A DNA stretch of 15,816 nt, taken from the IMG/VR virus record IMGVR_UViG_2711768076_000018. The stretch is one strand, 5' to 3'. Below the pieces are notes generated by a model. The model made no database searches. It was given only the letters and a program-made list of their open reading frames with translations, and was not told where the DNA came from. Source of the stretch: a virus. Taxonomy: Duplodnaviria; Heunggongvirae; Uroviricota; Caudoviricetes. Shown in pieces: positions 1,885-15,816 of the stretch (position 1 is the first letter of the stretch; each line of letters opens with the position of its first letter). The position numbers and the translations under genes are program-made.

Positions 1885-2178
1885 TTACCGCCGCAACCGC
1901 TCCGGCTTCTTCCAGTGGTAAGTAATTTTTTCTTTCTCCTGGTACATCTCCACGCGGCGACGATATGACAACAACTCCAGAACTCTGGTGCGTATATTGC
2001 GTATATCCACGCCGTTAAGCTCGATACCGTCACGGCGCATCACCTCAGCCACCACACGCGCGTAATTTTTGGCTATCACGCTGTCCGGCTGCGTGGCCTC
2101 CTGTTTGCCTGCTTCCTGGCTGATTCCGGTAACGCGGCGGATTATTTTTAGTAGTTCGGTTTCGCTCATTCTCGTCAT
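1885..2178 (-). CDS. hypothetical protein (97 aa), last gene of packaging operon
   Basis: ATG at 2178 overlaps the TerL stop (ATGA overlap), suggesting translational coupling. No family recognised. Confidence 0.5.
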   Translation of the reverse strand: MTRMSETELLKIIRRVTGISQEAGKQEATQPDSVIAKNYARVVAEVMRRDGIELNGVDIRNIRTRVLELLSYRRRVEMYQEKEKITYHWKKPERLRR

Positions 2179-3836
2179 ACCCCATCAAACGCCGCAAGCC
2201 GCTCTTTGTGGCTGTCGCTCATATCAAATGCAAATTCCTCATGCTCTGCCTGGAATGTGCCAAACGCCATCAGCGCCGCAACGCTCGGGTCTATCTTGTT
2301 GGATGATTTTTTCTTGTTCGGCTTGATATTGGCGTTCGCGTCACTCTGCATCACAACATTACTCATTGACCAGGCCAGCACCGGATCGCCACGATGCACA
2401 ATCACCTTCCGGTTAACAAAAACTTCGAACGATTTCGCCGCCGGACTGAAACGAAGGTATGTTTGCGGGAACGGCTCCACCTCAAATCCTGCCCCCTGTA
2501 GCTGCGTCCTCAGGTGCGTGGCGTTCCATGTATCGAAGCCCACCAGCCTGATATTGAAATTCTCTGCATCCGCCATGATGTCATCACGGATACGGTCATA
2601 ATCAATGCAGTCACCCGGTGTTGTGCGTATCCAGCCCGCCTTTACCCACTGGCGATAGATGGCGCGGTTTTTATTGGCGGGGTTCTGTAGCTGAAATTCC
2701 GGCAGATAGTGACGGGAAACCAGCATAATCTTTTTACCGACCGGAAAGGCATAGCACACGCTGGAAATATCGCTGGTTGATGATAAGTCCAGCCCCGCGT
2801 AGCACTCCTGACCGTATAAATCCGCCTCCGCGAACGTTCCGGCGCACTCCGCCCATGCACCGTTACCCATCCACGGCGTAGCCCCCTGACACCAGATATT
2901 GAATCGCTTGGTGAGCATTTCCACCCACTGCGACGGAATACCCCGCGCTTTCTGGATGGTTGAGGCCAGTTTTTCACGATCGACGGAAACATCGATATTG
3001 GGATTCGCCTTTATCCACATCGCCGGATCGTCAACCTCGCTTTCATCATCCAGCTCGTAAATCAGCACGAACATGGATTCGTTCACCTCTTCACCATCCA
3101 GTATCTGGCAGCAATAGTCATAGTGTTGTTTACAGGCTGAAACAACGTTGCTCCCCGATGTGGTGATGGCAAATAACAGCCCCTCCGGACGCGCCCCCAT
3201 TCCCAGTTCAAGCGCGGAATAAACCCCGTTGTCAGGGTGCAGGTGATATTCATCCACAATGGCAAGACTCGGGTTTGTACCTTCAATGGTTGCCGCTTTT
3301 GCTGCCAGTGGCTTTAACAGGCTGTTGGTTTTCGGGTGTATCACCTTGTGTGCCTGAATATTTACCCGCTTTCGTAACGGTCGGGATAAAAGGCACATCT
3401 GACGCGCATCATCAAACACGATCCGCGCCTGATCACGACTCACGGCGGCGGTGTAAATATCCTGCTGCCCGTTTTCCATAACCAGAAACCAGTTAGCCAG
3501 GATAGCGGCGACCGTGGATTTGGCATTTTTTCGCGGCACTTCAATGAATGCGCTGGTGTATTTGCGCCGTCCGGTGGCCTTAACCTTAAAGCCCAGGATG
3601 CACGCAAAGGCGAACTGCTGCCACGGCTCCAGCTCAATGGGGCTACCGCGCATTGCGCCTTTTACGTGCGGACACACCCTGGAAAAGGCAATAAACCGCT
3701 CCACGACCTCCGGATCGAACGTGTAAAGGGGGTTTTCAAGGTCAGAAAAATACCGTTTAACGGCCTGTTTCAGTCGTTTACAGGCCGTAATTTTGCCGTT
3801 TTTTACGCCTTCTGCGTACTCATGCCAGGCGGTCAA
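2175..3836 (-). CDS. terL: terminase large subunit (HK97-like Terminase_1 family ATPase/nuclease)
   Basis: 553-aa ORF with typical large-terminase length and motifs. The ORF-track start at 3836 is a TTG codon preceded by GAGGA; no in-frame ATG lies nearby. Confidence 0.85.
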   Translation of the reverse strand: MTAWHEYAEGVKNGKITACKRLKQAVKRYFSDLENPLYTFDPEVVERFIAFSRVCPHVKGAMRGSPIELEPWQQFAFACILGFKVKATGRRKYTSAFIEVPRKNAKSTVAAILANWFLVMENGQQDIYTAAVSRDQARIVFDDARQMCLLSRPLRKRVNIQAHKVIHPKTNSLLKPLAAKAATIEGTNPSLAIVDEYHLHPDNGVYSALELGMGARPEGLLFAITTSGSNVVSACKQHYDYCCQILDGEEVNESMFVLIYELDDESEVDDPAMWIKANPNIDVSVDREKLASTIQKARGIPSQWVEMLTKRFNIWCQGATPWMGNGAWAECAGTFAEADLYGQECYAGLDLSSTSDISSVCYAFPVGKKIMLVSRHYLPEFQLQNPANKNRAIYRQWVKAGWIRTTPGDCIDYDRIRDDIMADAENFNIRLVGFDTWNATHLRTQLQGAGFEVEPFPQTYLRFSPAAKSFEVFVNRKVIVHRGDPVLAWSMSNVVMQSDANANIKPNKKKSSNKIDPSVAALMAFGTFQAEHEEFAFDMSDSHKERLAAFDGV

Positions 3837-4176
3837 GCTCGTCCTCTTCCTCTGTTTCCGGTGGATTTCTGCGGCGACTTACCGGGTCAAAACCCAGCAA
3901 AGAAGCCATTTTGATCATTATTCTTTCAGCGTCAGCCTTTGCGCTCAGGGCGGGGTTTCTGCTCTCGCTGCCCTGACTGTTAACAATGCTGAACCCGCGC
4001 GTGGCAAGGTCTTCGACGGCTTTGCGGTATATGGAGTAGTTAACGCAATACAGCTCCAGATTGCTCCAGTCGGCGGGAGTAAGGTCTTCCCGTCCGGAAA
4101 GCTGGCGCGATTTTTCCTTCCACTGCCTGACCGCGATTTCATCCAGGTAAGCGGGGGCTTTTGGTGGTCTTGCCAT
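3820..4176 (-). CDS. terS: terminase small subunit (P27-like family)
   Basis: The C-terminal 119 aa (MARPPKAPAYLDEIAVRQW ...) look like a small terminase. The 47 codons upstream to the ORF-track start (4317) have odd composition and rare codons, so ATG 4176 is preferred. Confidence 0.65.
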   Translation of the reverse strand: MARPPKAPAYLDEIAVRQWKEKSRQLSGREDLTPADWSNLELYCVNYSIYRKAVEDLATRGFSIVNSQGSESRNPALSAKADAERIMIKMASLLGFDPVSRRRNPPETEEEDELDRLA

Positions 4177-4464
4177 GTTCTTTTTTCGCCCAATTATTTT
4201 CAAAAAAATTCCCGTGCACAAAAATTTGAGGAGGCGGTCGGTGTCCGGCAGGGACGGTTTCGTCCTGAAAACCACCCCCACCCCCTCTGACGGCCTCACC
4301 AGCGATTGCGAAAACATTCCATGACCTCGCGGTCACGGTCGGTTAATTGCTTCGCTGTGGTGCGTTCTGTGCGCCCTGTCCTGTTGGCTTTGTGCCCTGT
4401 CTCCTGTGTCTTCCATAAGTCACGCTGCCTTATCAGTCCACGTATCAGCCTGGTTTGCTCCTGT
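4177..4464. other. HNH-TerS intergenic region, candidate cos/packaging site
   Basis: About 290 bp gap containing hairpin GGACGgtttCGTCC (4251-4264) and C-tract CCACCCCCACCCCCTC (about 4272-4287). In HK97-type cos phages the cos site lies between the HNH gene and terS. Confidence 0.3.
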
Positions 4465-4475
4465 TCAGTCATCAT
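4296..4475 (-). CDS. possible small basic protein (about 59 aa) overlapping the HNH 3' end
   Basis: In-frame ATGs at 4481/4475/4472 overlap the last HNH codons (MMTEQEQTRLIRGLIRQRDLWK ...). The SD is weak, so this is speculative. Confidence 0.25.
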   Translation of the reverse strand: MMTEQEQTRLIRGLIRQRDLWKTQETGHKANRTGRTERTTAKQLTDRDREVMECFRNRW

Positions 4476-4905
4476 CGCCATACATCCAGTCGTTACGGTG
4501 TGCTGCCCGTTCTTCCTGTTCGCGATACATGCCCGCCTTACGGTTCGCTTTCGTGGCTGGATCTTCCCGTGTCGTCTTACGGTTGTGGCACGTCTGGCAC
4601 AATGCCTGGTGGTTCCACTCAGGCCAGAAGAGAACATCACCGCCGCCATTGATGGGGATGATGTGATCCACCACAAGAGCTGGCGTATAAATCCCCTTAG
4701 CCAGACAACGCACGCATAACGGGTTTTTGCTCAGGTACAGGGCGCGGTATTTGTCCCACTGTCGGGAATACCCGCGCGCGCGGCGGTGTCCCCGTCTGGC
4801 ATCCTCTGCACGCCATACAGCCCGTCTGTGCTCTTCACACTTGCCGGACTTCACGCGCTTATTACAGCCCGGCTCAGTGCATCGCCTTAATGGTTGCCAC
4901 GGCAT
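4465..4905 (-). CDS. HNH endonuclease (terminase-associated)
   Basis: 146 aa with Cys-rich N-terminus and an HNH motif (DHIIP ... NHQALCQTCHNRKT). ATG 4905 overlaps the stop of the upstream gene (ATGA). Confidence 0.85.
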   Translation of the reverse strand: MPWQPLRRCTEPGCNKRVKSGKCEEHRRAVWRAEDARRGHRRARGYSRQWDKYRALYLSKNPLCVRCLAKGIYTPALVVDHIIPINGGGDVLFWPEWNHQALCQTCHNRKTTREDPATKANRKAGMYREQEERAAHRNDWMYGDDD

Positions 4906-5207
4906 CAGTACACCCCCACATCACGATAAACCGACCAGAGCGCAGAAATAGCCATAGGCAGTTCAGACTGCTCCACTGGTGAAACTGCTTCCCTGTTCTC
5001 GTACAGGAAAGCGATGTACATCAGGCAACCAACACGCATTGCCGGGGTAAATTCCAGCCCGTCTTCAAAACGTTTCCCGATATGCTTCTGGCAGGCTTCC
5101 AGCGCCGCATCGGTATACATTTTCAGAAGTTCGCCTTCACCGGATAAATCATCATCAAGTCGAAGATGTGCCCTGACTTCATCAGGTGTAATTCTGGCTT
5201 CACTCAT
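4905..5207 (-). CDS. head-tail connector / DNA-packaging protein, gp6-like
   Basis: About 100 aa from ATG 5207 (MSEARITPDEV ...) with a strong SD (AGGGAG) just after the portal stop. The ORF-track start at 5270 is GTG and less likely. Confidence 0.65.
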   Translation of the reverse strand: MSEARITPDEVRAHLRLDDDLSGEGELLKMYTDAALEACQKHIGKRFEDGLEFTPAMRVGCLMYIAFLYENREAVSPVEQSELPMAISALWSVYRDVGVY

Positions 5208-6414
5208 CTTTTCTCCCTTTAATTTCCACAGTCTGTTTCCATGCCTGGCTGAACTCATCACCACCTTCACGCGGCGGCATACCCTCGCGTTCGCGAGCTT
5301 CGTTCGGATTCATGATCCCGCTCTTAATCCCTTTCTCATACGTGGCATAACGTTCGGTGGGTGTGGCGCGCAGTAAATCGGCTGAATCAAACTCAACCAG
5401 ATAACGGGTACCAGGTACGGGAGAAGTCACCAGCAAAGCGGCCTTGATTTGCTGTTCGAAGTTCGCCAGCCACGGGCGCATTGTCATGGTCAGAAATGCG
5501 CGGCTCGCCTCACTGAAATTGCTGTAGGTGCTGTTGCTGTATTCCTGAAGAAAAATCGGCGACACGTTGAACATCCTGGCGATGTCTTCAATGGAGAAGC
5601 GACGGGAGGCCAGCCATTCCGCATCCTGGTTACTCATCCCCAGCTGCCTGTAATCCATGCCCCCTTCAAGGATTGGCGTTTTTCCGGCATTTTTCGCCCC
5701 CTTGTAGCGTTCCAGTGCGTCTAATGCCTGTTTACCTTTCACGCCGTCCAGCCATTCACCTGACGTGATAATCCCTGCCGCCATCATGCCATCTTTCATA
5801 ATGCTGGCTCCGTGACGCTGTTGAGCAAGGCCAAGCCCCAGCGCCTCACGGCAAATCGTGACGGGGGAACGCCCCAGAAAGCCATCATCCGAGGCATAGC
5901 GGAGATGCAGAACTTCTTCCTGTAAATACGTGCGCACCGTTCCTGTACAGGGTTCGGTGATGGTATAGCGGTATTTGTGTGTGCCTGTGCGTTCCGGTAC
6001 AACACACCCCGGCGCATAAGGATGAAGTGATTTTGGCTGCCCGTCCCGCCCCCACTCAATAACCGCATAGGCGTTACCGTTCAGCAGGCAGTGACGCATC
6101 ATTGTGCGTTTAAACTGGTAAGGTGTCAGGCACGAATTAGGCTGCTCATTCAGCAGAATATCTACCGGGTGACTGTCCAGCCATTCCCGCGCCTCTCTGC
6201 CCTTATCATTGCGTACCAGATACAGGTAACACGGCATCGTGGCCACCGCCTCAGCGATGACAGAAACCGCGTTCATCACAGCAGGCAATGATTCAGCCGT
6301 CCCGGCAGAAACATATTCTCCGGATCCGGTATTTGGTACACCAGACAACGCCAGAAAATCATCAATGGACAGGTTACGCAGATCGCTTTTTTTACGACTA
6401 AAAGGCCACCACAT
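5200..6414 (-). CDS. portal protein (HK97 family)
   Basis: About 404 aa from ATG 6414 (MWWPFSRKK ...), 1 nt after the protease stop and preceded by a GGGGG SD. The ORF-track start at 6504 is TTG. Size and composition fit a portal. Confidence 0.85.
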   Translation of the reverse strand: MWWPFSRKKSDLRNLSIDDFLALSGVPNTGSGEYVSAGTAESLPAVMNAVSVIAEAVATMPCYLYLVRNDKGREAREWLDSHPVDILLNEQPNSCLTPYQFKRTMMRHCLLNGNAYAVIEWGRDGQPKSLHPYAPGCVVPERTGTHKYRYTITEPCTGTVRTYLQEEVLHLRYASDDGFLGRSPVTICREALGLGLAQQRHGASIMKDGMMAAGIITSGEWLDGVKGKQALDALERYKGAKNAGKTPILEGGMDYRQLGMSNQDAEWLASRRFSIEDIARMFNVSPIFLQEYSNSTYSNFSEASRAFLTMTMRPWLANFEQQIKAALLVTSPVPGTRYLVEFDSADLLRATPTERYATYEKGIKSGIMNPNEAREREGMPPREGGDEFSQAWKQTVEIKGRKDE

Positions 6415-6415
6415 A

Positions 6416-6976
6416 TCACACCCCCGCCAGTTCAGCCCAGCGATGACGATTATTTCCTGCCGGGCGTAATTCAGGGTACTGTGCAAACAACGAACGGTGG
6501 GCAATCTCCACGCCGGATTCGGGATAAGCAGGCATCGATGTTATCGTGATTTCACGGAGTTCTGCTGCGGTTACAGTACGCAGATACGGTTTTTGCGCGA
6601 TATTCCACTCCTCGCATAATGCGCGAAAGCCAAAGCTCATTCCTGTAATATCGCCACGTTCCACCAGCGTAAGCACATCTTTTCCAAGCTGGGTATTTGG
6701 CGGTGTCAGTTCAAAACGTAGCCCGGTGTTATCCTCAGTCAGTACCAGTGAGCCGGATTTGGTACGCCCCAGCAGTTGGGTATAGTCATGCTCATACAGA
6801 CAGCGCACATCATTACCTGCCGCCAGATAGTCAGCAAAAGCCCCCGGCGTGAACTGTTCGCGAAACTCGTCCCAGATAATTTCTGAAAGGCTGTTCCAGC
6901 GAACGGCATAACCCACCAGTTTTTTATCGCTGGCGGTCAGTTCAGATGTACGGATTTCAAAATCGGTGTTTTTCAT
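6416..6976 (-). CDS. prohead maturation protease (HK97 family)
   Basis: 186 aa from ATG 6976 (MKNTDFEIRTSEL ...) with GGAG SD. Conserved GMSFGF-type motif region. The ORF-track N-terminal extension to 7201 overlaps the capsid gene and is unlikely. Confidence 0.85.
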   Translation of the reverse strand: MKNTDFEIRTSELTASDKKLVGYAVRWNSLSEIIWDEFREQFTPGAFADYLAAGNDVRCLYEHDYTQLLGRTKSGSLVLTEDNTGLRFELTPPNTQLGKDVLTLVERGDITGMSFGFRALCEEWNIAQKPYLRTVTAAELREITITSMPAYPESGVEIAHRSLFAQYPELRPAGNNRHRWAELAGV

Positions 6977-7025: not shown

Positions 7026-8171
7026 TTACTTGCCAGCCTGAATTTCCAGAATCTTGATGGCGTTCGAATCCACCACACCACCGCCCAGATATTTCTGGGT
7101 ATAGATGTTAATGAATCCAGGCTCGCTGAAATCCGGACGGGTACGCGTACCGGTTTTATGGTCAACGATGAAATAACCGCGCTTAAAGTCACCGACTGCA
7201 ATCACACCGTCCGGCATAAATTCCAGATATTCAACCGGAAGCCCCAGCAGAGAATCAGGATCACCAGCCTGTAAACGATCGCGCCAGATGTAATCACCAG
7301 TGGCATTTTTCAGTTTTTGTGCGGAGGCGGCTGTATTTGAGTTCATCACCCATACAGCTTTTTTGCGGTACTTATTGCGCAGCGTAAATTTCAGGTCAAT
7401 CAGCATATCGGCGCTGAGACTGCCAGTCACTTTTTTCGTCTGGAGCGTACCGAAAGGACGGGTTTTGTCATTATCCGTAGTGCGCGGGAAAGTCAGGAAA
7501 CCTTTGGCTTTTTTCTCGCCATCACCGGAAACCAGATCCGTTTCTTCGGTATCAACGAAAGTGTCGCCAATTTCAGAAGATAACCAGCCCATAATATCGA
7601 CTTCGGAAAAATCGATAATTTCCTGAGTGGTTTTCGGGTAAGCGTAGATCGGATACAGGCGGATACTGACTTCATTCAGTTTTGGGGTTGCCGTCTGGTT
7701 ACGTGCCGCACCTTCTTCGCCGTGTCCCACGACCGCCCCCCCGGCAGAAACCAGTTGCTTAAATTCATTACTGTGAATGGTTTTAACAGTACAGATTTTA
7801 CGCATCACCGACTCATCAGAAAGCTGACGCATAATTTCTCTGTTCAGTTCCGGGATAACCGTATAACCACCATCAGCCGGAACACTGCCGGACAGGTTGC
7901 GGGTTTCCCCGGTCAGAATGTAAGAGCGTAGCTCATTTTTGGTGATTTTATCTTCGACGGGAACACCAGGCTGGTTACGTTCTTCATCAGCCACAGACTC
8001 GAGGCGGGAAATTTCTGTGTCGAGGGAATCGGCTTTTGCACGCAGTTCATCAAACTGTTTGCCTTCGTCATCGGTTAGACTGCGGTTTTCACTGTCGGCT
8101 TTTTCCAGCAGGGATCGCATCTGGTTTTTCAGGGCGGTTTTTTGCTGGCGGAGTTCGATTAATTTCTTCAT
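7026..8171 (-). CDS. major capsid protein (HK97 fold) with N-terminal coiled-coil delta domain
   Basis: 381 aa, ATG at 8171. The N-terminal 60 aa are coiled-coil-like (MKKLIELRQQKTALKNQ ...), followed by a capsid-shell domain with HK97-like C-terminal motifs. Confidence 0.9.
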   Translation of the reverse strand: MKKLIELRQQKTALKNQMRSLLEKADSENRSLTDDEGKQFDELRAKADSLDTEISRLESVADEERNQPGVPVEDKITKNELRSYILTGETRNLSGSVPADGGYTVIPELNREIMRQLSDESVMRKICTVKTIHSNEFKQLVSAGGAVVGHGEEGAARNQTATPKLNEVSIRLYPIYAYPKTTQEIIDFSEVDIMGWLSSEIGDTFVDTEETDLVSGDGEKKAKGFLTFPRTTDNDKTRPFGTLQTKKVTGSLSADMLIDLKFTLRNKYRKKAVWVMNSNTAASAQKLKNATGDYIWRDRLQAGDPDSLLGLPVEYLEFMPDGVIAVGDFKRGYFIVDHKTGTRTRPDFSEPGFINIYTQKYLGGGVVDSNAIKILEIQAGK

Positions 8172-10205: not shown

Positions 10206-12020
10206 TTAATTTTTGCTGTCGTCATTTGTGACCGATGCACATGATGGCATCCAGTCTTCTGAATCCTCTGTCAGTGTCACATTTGAACGCAAACCGTGCT
10301 TCGTTTTCCGTTTTATATACTCCCTGCCATATTCCGCCATTGCCCCCGGCATATCTTTACCGAAGCGCGTCAGTGTTACAGGTTTACCGAATCCGTGTGC
10401 CCTCATATATGCCAGATAGGCGTGATAAAGATACCTGCGCGGACTGAACGGAATAATTTCGGCATTACCCACTAACAGACCATCACACATTACCGACGAC
10501 ATGAGATAGCCACAGAAGTCCACCAGCGAATCGCCCTCGCGTTTTATCACCAGAGCTTCTTCTGATTTCTGCTGCTCATACAGCAGGCGTTTAGCTTCGT
10601 CCTGGTCAGAAAAACGAGTAAGCAGATGGCGAATCACAACCGCCAGCTCTCCTTCTATTTTTTCTGCCAGCATGGGGTCGCGCTCGTTCTCCGGTACAAC
10701 CTCCGAAAAATTGAATATCACCCGACGACGTGAGATCCCCCCGCTGCGGTCACTGAATGACATGGCGTTATTGTTCACCGCCAGCACGACCGCCTGAATG
10801 CGTGTTGAGTAGGGGGCTTTATGCTTCGGGTCGATTGCCACCTTGTCACCGCCTGTAATAGCCTTAATTCCTGCGCCATCACCAGCGTAGCGGGTCATAT
10901 CCGGCATGATAATCAGCGAAAAGCCAACCACTAACGCGCGTTCCCTTGCATCTTCCAGCGCCTTCATGCTTGCCGATACTGTGTTGGCCTTACCCGCCAG
11001 CATGGTGCAAATCTCCGCCATCACGCTTTTACCACTTCCCCCTGGACCTGTTACCTCAATGAATAACTGCCAGTCGTACCGGTTCGCCAGCACCATGAAT
11101 AATGCAGCCAGCACGCGATCCGTCTTGCGGTCATTCTCTGCCACCGAGCAGCGTAACCACTTCCAGAAATTCGGCGCATGTGTTGCCAGCGTTTCCCCCT
11201 CTGCTGGTGGGCTGAAAGGTAATTCACTGGCAATTAACAACCAGTCGTTTTTGTTATGCTCCCGAAAATTACCTGTTCTGGTATCAAATACCCCGTTACT
11301 GAATCCAATCAGGTTACGGGCTGTATTCCCCATTACAGGCAAACTTAACTTCATGGTATCGACCGCCGATTTAATGGCGTTCTGCGAATAGCTGATCTCC
11401 GCATCAATGAAAATCTGCGCCATAGCACGCTGTAACTCTTTATCCTGAATCGGCTCCCATACAACGCCGTTGTAATGGTGAACAGTGTCAGAGTCGGCAT
11501 GAATCGCCAGTTCACCGCCATAATGTGCCAGGAGAACTTCGCCGCGCTGGCTTGCTCCCATCTGGTTAAGCGCCAGTGGTGCGGCGCTGTCTTCTGTTTT
11601 TTTCTTAACAGGAAGCTGAATCACCAGACCATCAGAAAGATTCTGGCGCTCACGGGCCAGATATTCGCGCCAGTTCTGCACCTCCTGGCCGTGCATACCC
11701 TCAGGATAAAAATTTGCATCCTGTACGCCTGCCGCCGCCAGCTTCTGACCAATCGCCTTTATCATTACTGGCGCAAGATATCCGGCCCTGAATATGCGCA
11801 CGGATTTTCTGCCTTCCGGCACAATTTGCAGCTTATCCAGTTCGGATAACTGCTGCTCCCCAAGCCACACAGGAGGCTCATTATCTCCGGCCATACGCGC
11901 GTCATGTTCCTGCCATTGTTTTGCGTGTGACCAGGCATCACTACCCGCAAAAATAATGACTTCTGTTTCTTTGTGTTTTATGCCGCGTGACTGCTGTTTT
12001 ACGTTCGGTGCCAGTTTCAT
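10206..12020 (-). CDS. primase/helicase replication initiator (P4-alpha-like, Walker A NTPase C-terminal domain)
   Basis: 604 aa with Walker A GPGGSGKS in the C-terminal half, of a size typical for satellite or plasmid primase-helicases. ATG 12020 overlaps the upstream stop (ATGA). Confidence 0.85.
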   Translation of the reverse strand: MKLAPNVKQQSRGIKHKETEVIIFAGSDAWSHAKQWQEHDARMAGDNEPPVWLGEQQLSELDKLQIVPEGRKSVRIFRAGYLAPVMIKAIGQKLAAAGVQDANFYPEGMHGQEVQNWREYLARERQNLSDGLVIQLPVKKKTEDSAAPLALNQMGASQRGEVLLAHYGGELAIHADSDTVHHYNGVVWEPIQDKELQRAMAQIFIDAEISYSQNAIKSAVDTMKLSLPVMGNTARNLIGFSNGVFDTRTGNFREHNKNDWLLIASELPFSPPAEGETLATHAPNFWKWLRCSVAENDRKTDRVLAALFMVLANRYDWQLFIEVTGPGGSGKSVMAEICTMLAGKANTVSASMKALEDARERALVVGFSLIIMPDMTRYAGDGAGIKAITGGDKVAIDPKHKAPYSTRIQAVVLAVNNNAMSFSDRSGGISRRRVIFNFSEVVPENERDPMLAEKIEGELAVVIRHLLTRFSDQDEAKRLLYEQQKSEEALVIKREGDSLVDFCGYLMSSVMCDGLLVGNAEIIPFSPRRYLYHAYLAYMRAHGFGKPVTLTRFGKDMPGAMAEYGREYIKRKTKHGLRSNVTLTEDSEDWMPSCASVTNDDSKN

Positions 12021-14742: not shown

Positions 14743-15816
14743 TTATTTTCTTCTGGCTGCTGGTAGTGCGGTTACGTTTTCATGTGCTCCCGCCAGTATC
14801 CCTAACCGCTCCGTCCACATATCCAGCGCATTGCGTTTCGCATCCAGATAACGGGAGTGATTATAGACTCGTTGCATCCCTGGCATCTGGTGTCCTGTAA
14901 GCTGCTCCACGACATGCGGATCAACGCCTAAATCGTTCAGCATGGTTGTAAAGGTGCGCCGGATGTCATGCAGTGACCAGTGGGGGTGATTAAGCCTCCT
15001 GTGCGCTAATCTTCCATACTGCGATACGCTGGCCTCCTGTTTCACTTCCCCCAGCAATAAGCCCGTGTGCCTGTTCTGCTCCACCAGCTGCGTGATGAAC
15101 GGCAGTATTGCTTCCGGTATAGGCCGGAATATGGCTACCTTCGTTTTGCTGTGCTCCTTCGGAACGGTCCAGAGCATTTCGGTAAAATCCCACTCGCCGA
15201 TCTCCGATAACCTAAGTTCGACCGTCCGGCATCCGAACACAATCAGGAGGCGGATTAGCGCGATGTAGTAGGGGGAAAATATTTTTTTGTCCAGTGCCTG
15301 CAATAATTCGCCCAGCTCTTTATTGCTTAAGACACGTTCGCTTATATCCGGTTTTTTCCCAACGTCCGCTACGTTCAGATCATCGAGAACGTTACTGATT
15401 GCATAGCGCCGCCTCCGGCAGTACTTAAGCGCCTGTTTGCATGTCTGTAGCACGAATCCGGCAGTAACAGGTGTTCGCTTTGCCACCTGGTCAAAGCAGG
15501 CCAGCCAGTGCCGTAGCTCGCATTTATCCAGCGGCATAGCACCAATTTTGGTGATTATGTTTTTATTGATCCGGCTTTTCAGTGATTCGTAATCTGTGCG
15601 CTTTTCCTTTGCGTACGACTCAAGCCAATAGGTGAGCGCATCGCCAACCGTTACAGGCTTTAACGCTTCCTGCATGGTGTAATTCAGTTCATAGCGTGGA
15701 TTTTTCCCCTCAGCCAGCCATGCGCGACACTGGGCGGCTTTTTCCCTGGCTGCTTTCAGACTCAGATCGGGATAATTTCCCAGCTTAACGCGTTCAGGTT
15801 GTGTCCCTCTTCCCAT
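14743..15816 (-). CDS. int: tyrosine integrase (P4/CP4-57 type), 5'-partial
   Basis: 357 aa visible, with the C-terminal catalytic region (HDIRRTF ... YNHSRY). The region LGNYPDLSLKAAREKAAQCRAWLAEGKNP aligns, from memory, to around residues 55-85 of P4-type integrases, so about 45 N-terminal codons probably lie beyond the window. Confidence 0.85.
   Translation of the reverse strand: MGRGTQPERVKLGNYPDLSLKAAREKAAQCRAWLAEGKNPRYELNYTMQEALKPVTVGDALTYWLESYAKEKRTDYESLKSRINKNIITKIGAMPLDKCELRHWLACFDQVAKRTPVTAGFVLQTCKQALKYCRRRRYAISNVLDDLNVADVGKKPDISERVLSNKELGELLQALDKKIFSPYYIALIRLLIVFGCRTVELRLSEIGEWDFTEMLWTVPKEHSKTKVAIFRPIPEAILPFITQLVEQNRHTGLLLGEVKQEASVSQYGRLAHRRLNHPHWSLHDIRRTFTTMLNDLGVDPHVVEQLTGHQMPGMQRVYNHSRYLDAKRNALDMWTERLGILAGAHENVTALPAARRK

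Follow-up and report, generated by a model that had tools for sequence, protein, structure and literature searches.

Cohesive-end sites of phages and satellites

In HK97, the small terminase (TerS) binds positions +15 to +29 of the cos site and requires the A/T tract at +24 to +29 (PMC11331095). Cleavage produces a 10-nt 3' overhang and is stimulated by the HNH protein gp74 (PMC11331095; PMC9410871). In the phiE125/phi644-2 group of Burkholderia phages, a 10-nt 3' extension of the sequence 5'-CGCCCGCTTC-3' was reported (PMC2920897), and the phi1026b record ends in these same ten bases. The record termini of a further phage, Edwardsiella phage EPP-1, were set with PhageTerm (PMC11043334). The cos site of lambda (cosQ-cosN-cosB) has three parts, namely an upstream termination element (cosQ), the cut site and a downstream region to which the small terminase binds. 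For Pseudomonas phage D3 and for the Mycobacterium cluster-E phages, represented here by Murphy, we take the overhangs to be 9 nt long.

Satellites are also packaged from cos sites. P4, SaPIbov5 and EcCICFT073 (Rpp) copy or re-target the cos and the terminase of their helpers (10.1101/2022.09.08.507074), whereas the element analysed here encodes its own TerS, TerL and HNH protein beside its own predicted cos. The capsid-forming PICIs (cf-PICIs) spread between species and package only their own DNA in their own capsids, and cos would be the signal on which this exclusivity depends. The gene order of cf-PICIs in Proteobacteria is capsid, protease, portal and connectors, followed by hnh-terS-terL (10.1101/2022.09.08.507074; 10.1101/2025.02.11.637232). 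A cf-PICI is also induced by a helper phage and, packed in small capsids of its own, makes use of helper tails. It was reported that packaged DNA of KpCIDSM30104 forms concatemers via the cohesive ends of its cos sites (10.1101/2025.02.11.637232). In the cf-PICI texts consulted, cohesive ends are mentioned and cos is not mapped to sequence (10.1101/2025.02.11.637232; 10.1101/2022.09.08.507074).

The element and its packaging genes

The window, i.e., the whole 15.8-kb stretch of DNA that was analysed, is an E. coli cf-PICI. Nearly all of its long ORFs lie on the minus strand, and the genes follow each other in this order:

14743-15816, minus strand: int
10206-12020, minus strand: primase, followed in the listed gene order by SSB-like and ProQ/FinO-like genes
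7026-8171, minus strand: major capsid protein, followed in the gene order by the prohead protease
5200-6504, minus strand: portal
4905-5270, minus strand: head-tail connector
4465-4905, minus strand: HNH endonuclease, 146 aa (PF01844, E 8.8e-10; phrog_144, E 7e-45; RefSeq annotation of an identical copy)
4296-4481, minus strand: small conserved gene, 61 aa (phrog_3173, E 9e-28; RefSeq hypothetical protein)
3820-4176, minus strand: terS, P27-family small terminase, 118 aa (PF05119/TIGR01558)
2175-3836, minus strand: terL, large terminase with ATPase and nuclease domains (PF03354, E 4e-26; PF20441, E 2e-52), followed in the listed gene order by a 97-aa ORF
1-1236: host allantoate-amidohydrolase-like gene

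The element has the gene content and size of a cf-PICI, that is, an island within the range of 10-18 kb with int, a replication module, a capsid-protease-portal-connector module and hnh-terS-terL; tail and lysis genes are absent, judging from the ORF list only. RefSeq gives the same annotation to an identical module. The 421-bp region around the site is present in 161 of 5,426 complete E. coli genomes. One copy, in NZ_CM129038.1 (strain 700481), has a 100% identical cos region and adjoins a truncated yifB gene. Since the island in the window abuts the allantoate-amidohydrolase-like gene instead, the packaging module is found at differing integration sites.

The HNH gene is the final large gene ahead of cos in the order of packaging, and on the circular map the site lies between HNH and terS-terL, which is the layout of HNH-dependent cos sites. 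The HNH-terS-terL order matches that of phage records which start at terS and end at HNH, i.e., those of HK97, phi1026b, EPP-1, D3 and Zirinka. The coordinates and sequences given in an earlier note on this DNA were found to be correct. It had described an unusually long gap of about 290 bp between the two genes. The HNH stop at 4465 and the terS ATG at 4176 are indeed separated by 288 bp, but most of this is gene: two thirds of the supposed gap is occupied by the 61-aa phrog_3173 ORF, which overlaps the HNH 3' end by 17 nt, and the true non-coding stretch is the 119 bp from 4177 to 4295. Most automatic gene calls in public data give a 165-aa TerS that starts at ATG 4317 (3820-4317, minus strand) and runs through cos. 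This form is probably a mis-start; RefSeq and the relatives favour the 118-aa form with its start at 4176, and the extension is not conserved, because Ant-like relatives carry an in-frame stop two codons ahead of the ATG.

Organization and conservation of the intergenic region

Upstream regions from IMG/VR loci, an EDL933-type fragment and vB_KppS-Ant were aligned (62 distinct regions, reduced to 19 representatives). The following parts, named in the coding direction, were distinguished:

4482-4596: HNH 3' end, for comparison, mean conservation 0.80
4299-4478: small ORF, for comparison, mean conservation 0.76
4270-4291, minus strand: G-box GTCAGAGGGGGTGGGGGTGGTT, whose two G5 runs occupy 4281-4285 and 4275-4279; conservation continues as far as 4262 (…GGTTTTCAGGAC)
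4262-4285, minus strand: block A, GGGGTGGGGG.GGTTTTCAGGAC, mean conservation 0.95
4252-4265: hairpin GGACG-gttt-CGTCC, between the G-box and the predicted cut
about 4240-4261, minus strand: variable spacer, mean conservation 0.77, free in sequence and fixed in length
4231-4240, minus strand: predicted cohesive end with the 10-nt 3' overhang CGACCGCCTC, from homology to phage junctions
4195-4239, minus strand: block B, CC.CCTCAAATTTTT..GCACGG..ATTTTTTTGAAAATAA, mean conservation 0.93
4194-4230 (+1 to +37), minus strand: conserved left-end block CTCAAATTTTTGTGCACGGGAATTTTTTTGAAAATAA, predicted small-terminase binding region
4177-4194, minus strand: variable stretch with the ribosome-binding site, mean conservation 0.80

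Blocks A (0.95) and B (0.93) are both non-coding and exceed the flanking coding DNA (0.76-0.80) in conservation. Both are also kept in the Pasteurella element Pmp8, the TerS of which is 61% identical and which is without the small ORF; for the left-end block, the score in Pmp8 was 49 compared with a shuffle maximum of 26.

In positions relative to the predicted cut, the left-end block consists of an A/T stretch at +4 to +11, a GC core at +12 to +20 and a T7 tract at +23 to +29 (4202-4208). The same A/T-GC-A/T pattern is found at the left ends of phi1026b, EPP-1 and HK97. By analogy with these phages, the block at 4194-4230 is predicted to be the region to which the small terminase binds. An apparent IHF site, TCAAatttTTG, fits the consensus core and was dropped, since on inspection of the sequences it was absent from phi1026b and EPP-1.

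Location of the predicted cut

In the Burkholderia phages phi1026b, phiE125 and phi644-2, which are among the closest known systems, a P27-family TerS marks the left end and HNH the right end, as in the window, and the same holds for EPP-1. The phi1026b record ends with …GGGACCGCCCGCTTC and starts with GTCAAATTTTCACGCCCGCGAAA, so that its junction reads GGGACCGCCCGCTTC/GTCAAATTTTCACGCCCGCGAAA (the slash marks the cut here and below), and it corresponds to GACACCGACCGCCTC/CTCAAATTTTTGTGCACGGGAA in the window. When the 45-nt junctions (-15 to +30) of the two phages were slid ungapped along both strands of the whole window, a single best match was obtained at 4231/4230 on the minus strand, with 29/45 identical positions for phi1026b and 27/45 for EPP-1. 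The joined ends of EPP-1, …CTGCCCGCCTC/CCCCAATTTTTATGACCGCG…, align to …GACCGCCTC/CTCAAATTTTTGTGCACGG… of the window in a local alignment that spans the junction and scores 29, against a maximum of 24 in 2,000 shuffles. phi1026b differs from the window in the overhang sequence and in the A/T tract, and its TerS is ~34% identical over 72% of the length; moreover, it is a full phage and is without the small ORF between HNH and cos.

Right ends alone (last 60 nt) gave a similar result. D3 and phi1026b tie for rank 1 of 31,514 positions at 4231/4230, and Murphy matches in 40 of 60 positions at 4232/4231, one base away, with 29 for the next best position. For the other phages, the site ranked 7th (Zirinka), 11th (EPP-1) and 65th (HK97). 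The right end of D3, …GGGGTGGGGCGGGTCAAAACC…GGACACCGCGCCCCCA/, aligns ungapped to the window, with its terminus at 4231/4230. In Murphy, a 22-mer identical to GTCAGAGGGGGTGGGGGTGGTT is followed by 38 nt to the end of the record, and the terminus aligns at 4232/4231. Murphy has an HNH gene at the right end and a P27-family TerS, but its terS lies ~1 kb in. The left ends of D3 and Murphy are unrelated to block B of the window. For this reason, the D3 junction failed to single out the site once its left end was included.

Homology at the junction was thus found for EPP-1, phi1026b, D3 and Murphy, but not for HK97, whose cos gave local and global alignments no better than those of shuffles or of other pieces of the window. 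As this alignment is not significant, HK97 is kept as a likeness in architecture and register only: HNH and terS flank its cos, a G-run lies 42 nt upstream, ACCGCC adjoins the cut, and these are followed by a GC core and a T7 tract at +24 to +30 (+23 to +29 in the window). HK97 gp1 does not belong to PF05119, and BLASTP of the window TerS against it gave no similarity; nor did a TerS profile match anything among PDB sequences. The best structural match of the window TerS model was HK97 TerS, though the Foldseek E-value was ~1 and confidence in the model was only moderate (pLDDT 69). Together with the position of the T7 tract, this match would fit a TerS site beside the cut, as predicted from HK97 biochemistry. 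A model built from 28 close homologues brought no gain (pLDDT 61 compared with 69 from the single sequence).

The locus does not belong to the lambda family of cos sites. Lambda differs in its 12-nt 5' overhang, its gpNu1-type TerS with R sites and IHF and its lack of HNH, whereas the window has a P27-family TerS and an HNH gene. The likeness lies in the three-part layout and in the position of the G-box, which resembles that of cosQ. Lambda cosN contains GGGCGGCG, a sequence akin to the C-rich cut region of the window when read on the other strand.

Another anchor is the record LR881103 (vB_KppS-Ant). It was obtained with a Nextera XT library from the DNA of a lysate grown on K. pneumoniae DSM 30104, and it shares >99% identity with part of that host's genome (PMC8006926). 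LR881103.1 is a 16.5-kb, unit-length linear permutation that runs from terS to HNH and the small ORF, starting 22 nt before terS and ending 37 nt past the small ORF. Between its ends, it lacks 69 nt that are present in its closest relatives, of which 31 nt lie to the right and 38 nt to the left of the predicted cut. Tagmentation libraries typically miss a few tens of bases at physical ends. The assembly of a circular or permuted molecule would be expected to close without such a hole. As read from the sequences, the gap places the ends somewhere inside these 69 nt only. From the common host strain, vB_KppS-Ant was inferred to be KpCIDSM30104.

With four independent anchors in agreement (EPP-1, phi1026b, the right ends and the Ant record), the cut of the coding strand is predicted between 4231 and 4230, a position that is probably correct to within one base. 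The other strand is predicted to be cut between 4241 and 4240. Both the length and the polarity of the predicted 10-nt 3' overhang, CGACCGCCTC, are transferred from the phiE125 group and HK97 by homology. Among the relatives, these ten bases differ (CGACCGCCCC, CACCCGCCCC, CGCCCGCCCC and others). Among IMG/VR and metagenome contigs, none was found to start or end exactly at the predicted cut; the IMG/VR pattern matches are mostly integrated copies or interior positions.

Records of related elements

EcCIEDL933 and KpCIDSM30104 are elements of the same type with the same hnh-terS-terL module. The EDL933-type fragment and the DSM 30104 element (vB_KppS-Ant) share the G-box, the spacing and block B with the window. 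They differ in that identity over the region is ~72-75%, the overhangs are CGCCCGCCCC and CACCCGCCCC compared with CGACCGCCTC, and the small ORF is of another subtype.

The public descriptions of several such records do not fit their content. vB_KppS-Ant is titled an Escherichia phage and is called a filamentous ssDNA prophage in its own paper (PMC8006926), yet it is a cf-PICI; its "tape measure" annotation is doubtful. PQ569648.1 (Klebsiella phage P12620-1) is a 106.5-kb "complete genome", the last ~16 kb of which (90.6-106.5 kb) are a cf-PICI joined to an unrelated phage. Its satellite part starts at codon 2 of terS and stops inside the small ORF, so that it looks like a chimeric assembly and is only roughly informative on the ends. 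OR845787.1 (Escherichia phage ECO95 1-6-1) is unverified and 1.6 kb long. It stems from a lysate grown on E. coli ATCC 43895 (EDL933) and represents a terS-cos-HNH fragment of a cf-PICI that is ~72% identical to the window. The GenBank records of vB_KppS-Ant and P12620-1 are mis-described or chimeric for want of knowledge of the cos site, and the predicted site would help to recognise and orient cf-PICIs in genomes and viromes.

The G-box

The earlier note had pointed to a long C/G tract, CCACCCCCACCCCCTC, at 4272-4287. This tract is the G-box on the other strand; it is real, far above chance and the most conserved element of the region. The second G-run of the G-box ends 44 nt upstream of the predicted cut. 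On BLAST searching with the 124-nt intergenic query, the exact 22-mer GTCAGAGGGGGTGGGGGTGGTT was found in 152 Mycobacterium phages (genus Kostyavirus, cluster E), in each of them separated by 38 nt from the right record end. The G-box of the E. coli satellite and that of the cluster-E phages are thus identical in 22/22 positions, though the terminase proteins are barely alignable.

The distance was also conserved in a metagenome scan with the block-B pattern. All of the 29 matches with a downstream P27-family TerS show a G-run whose end lies 43-45 nt upstream of the cut point, compared with 2 of 51 chance matches without TerS; the background rate of a G-run in a 15-nt band is 4%. For phages with defined ends, a census was made of every run of at least four G in the last 150 nt. 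The distance in nt from the end of the run to the right terminus was 42 in HK97, 42 in phi1026b, 44 in EPP-1, 43 in Murphy, 46 in Zirinka, 41 in D4276 and 43 in PhiS63. Later additions gave 44 for D3, 42 for HK022 and 40 for phiC31; these three were chosen afterwards, and HK022 is not independent of HK97. The phages listed are HNH-associated cos phages from three host phyla. In phi1026b, the G-run ends 42 nt before the end of the record as the G-box does 44 nt before the cut in the window.

SfV was the exception among the phages listed, with a G-run 28-33 nt from the terminus. The start of its record (NC_003444) is displaced upstream by ~17 nt relative to the homologous left ends of EPP-1 and phi1026b. 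Either the cut of SfV differs or the boundary of the record is other than the cut.

A loose definition of the G-box (at least 12 G in 16 nt) was not unique, as the coding strand of the window, which is rich in G, gave 4 matches; what counts for the G-box is hence its position and its conservation rather than its composition. The G-box (4272-4288) and the C-rich sequence at the predicted cut (4231-4243) further form an imperfect inverted repeat, with GAGGGGGTGG pairing to CCGCCTCCTC in a single-strand fold. This repeat may be an effect of base composition only.

It is tentatively proposed that the G-box (consensus approximately GAGGGGGTGGGGG) is an unrecognised third component of HNH-dependent cos sites, located 40-46 nt ahead of the cut both in cf-PICIs and in phages of Proteobacteria, Actinobacteria and Firmicutes. 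It could act as a cosQ-like signal or as one that pauses the motor or positions HNH or TerL. No account of such an element was found in the literature searched, and a prior description is possible. If the proposal is true, the cos cut could be predicted from sequence alone across a large class of phages and satellites. A functional G-box at a fixed distance would add an element to the model of the HK97-type cos, which now comprises only the cut site and the downstream TerS site.

Nature of the site and alternative explanations

Taken as a whole, the 119-bp stretch at 4177-4295 is very probably the cos of the cf-PICI, built like the HNH-dependent cos sites of the HK97, phiE125 and D3 type. A packaging site between HNH and terS, as the earlier note had suggested, is supported by the gene order, the similarity of junctions, the break in the Ant record and the two conserved non-coding blocks. 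The class of HNH-dependent 3'-overhang cos sites, to which the locus would belong, is already known, and the fixed-distance G-box may be what is new in it.

The conserved blocks could instead be signals for the expression of terS-terL (a promoter, operator, terminator, anti-terminator or translational element), with cos or pac located elsewhere. Block B is A/T-rich and lies 18-54 nt ahead of the terS start, the coding strand of the region has two weak terminator-like patterns, and regulatory DNA is likewise conserved. However, a search of the region found no sigma-70-like promoter on the coding strand and a search of Rfam gave no match, the same motifs are found at the physical ends of phi1026b, EPP-1, D3 and Murphy, where they are divided between right and left termini, and the Ant record breaks in this region. 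In Murphy, the G-box lies >1 kb from terS and hence does not travel with the terS promoter region. This explanation is considered unlikely, and a dual role of the blocks in expression and in packaging is possible. Headful packaging from a pac site in or near terS, which would leave the intergenic conservation unrelated to DNA ends, has its parallel in the many satellites, e.g., the pac-type SaPIs, for which pairing of the satellite's own TerS with a pac site is described (10.1101/2022.09.08.507074). Nevertheless, fixed cohesive ends accompany a P27-family TerS and its neighbouring HNH in all of the examined phages whose ends are defined, cohesive cos ends are reported for a cf-PICI (10.1101/2025.02.11.637232) and the Ant record is of unit length with one defined break, so that headful packaging appears very unlikely.

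The 5-bp stem hairpin, which the earlier note had listed as a feature of the site, could as a hairpin or cruciform be the structure by which the site is recognised. Its GGACG/CGTCC stem is present at 4252-4265, between the G-box and the predicted cut, where it is contained in the spacer together with the GGAC of the G-box block. Against this, hairpins of this size are expected by chance: the 288 bp contain four perfect 5-bp stems compared with 1.3 ± 1.3 in shuffles, 6% of which do as well, and single-strand folding of the intergenic region does not stand out (z = -1.35). Most relatives are without the hairpin and keep the spacing but not the sequence; it is formed only by the window's own subclade, because its 3' arm falls in the variable segment. 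As a feature of the site, the hairpin therefore does not stand, and a role of it in recognition is the least probable of the readings considered here.

Proposed packaging mechanism

If the stretch is the cos of a cf-PICI, packaging by analogy with the phage systems would proceed as follows. After induction, the island would excise and replicate into concatemers. The P27-family TerS would bind the +1 to +37 block (4230-4194) via the GC core and the T7 tract at +23 to +29. TerL, aided by the HNH protein, would cut the coding strand at 4231/4230 and the other strand ~10 nt upstream, leaving the 3' overhang CGACCGCCTC. Packaging would then start at the terS end and proceed through terL, the attP junction, int, the replication genes and the capsid genes, reaching HNH and the small ORF last. 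Once the following cos arrives, the G-box, kept 44 nt upstream by the spacer of fixed length and free sequence, may position or trigger the terminal cut in the manner of cosQ, which is the most speculative step. As both the overhang and the block with the TerS site are those of the satellite's own lineage, we infer that its own terminase would select satellite over helper DNA. The predicted cut, overhang and TerS-binding block provide a handle for tests of packaging specificity, and the site could be used for cos plasmids that ride in cf-PICI particles.

The small gene between HNH and the predicted cos

The possible small overlapping ORF mentioned in the earlier note turned out to be a real gene of 61 aa (phrog_3173) that is conserved among the relatives. 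Searches of Pfam and NCBIfam gave no match for its product. The frame is open in almost all of the 62 distinct relatives, and it is conserved at the amino-acid level despite strong divergence of the nucleotides. The gene is deleted in two relatives and truncated or interrupted in five, all of which look otherwise intact; on account of these few losses, it may be dispensable. Three or four subtypes of the protein were distinguished, which share the pattern M(T/N)E…RD…RDRE(L/V).ECFRNR; the conserved C-terminus reads ...RDRE(V/L)(M/R)ECFRNR(W).
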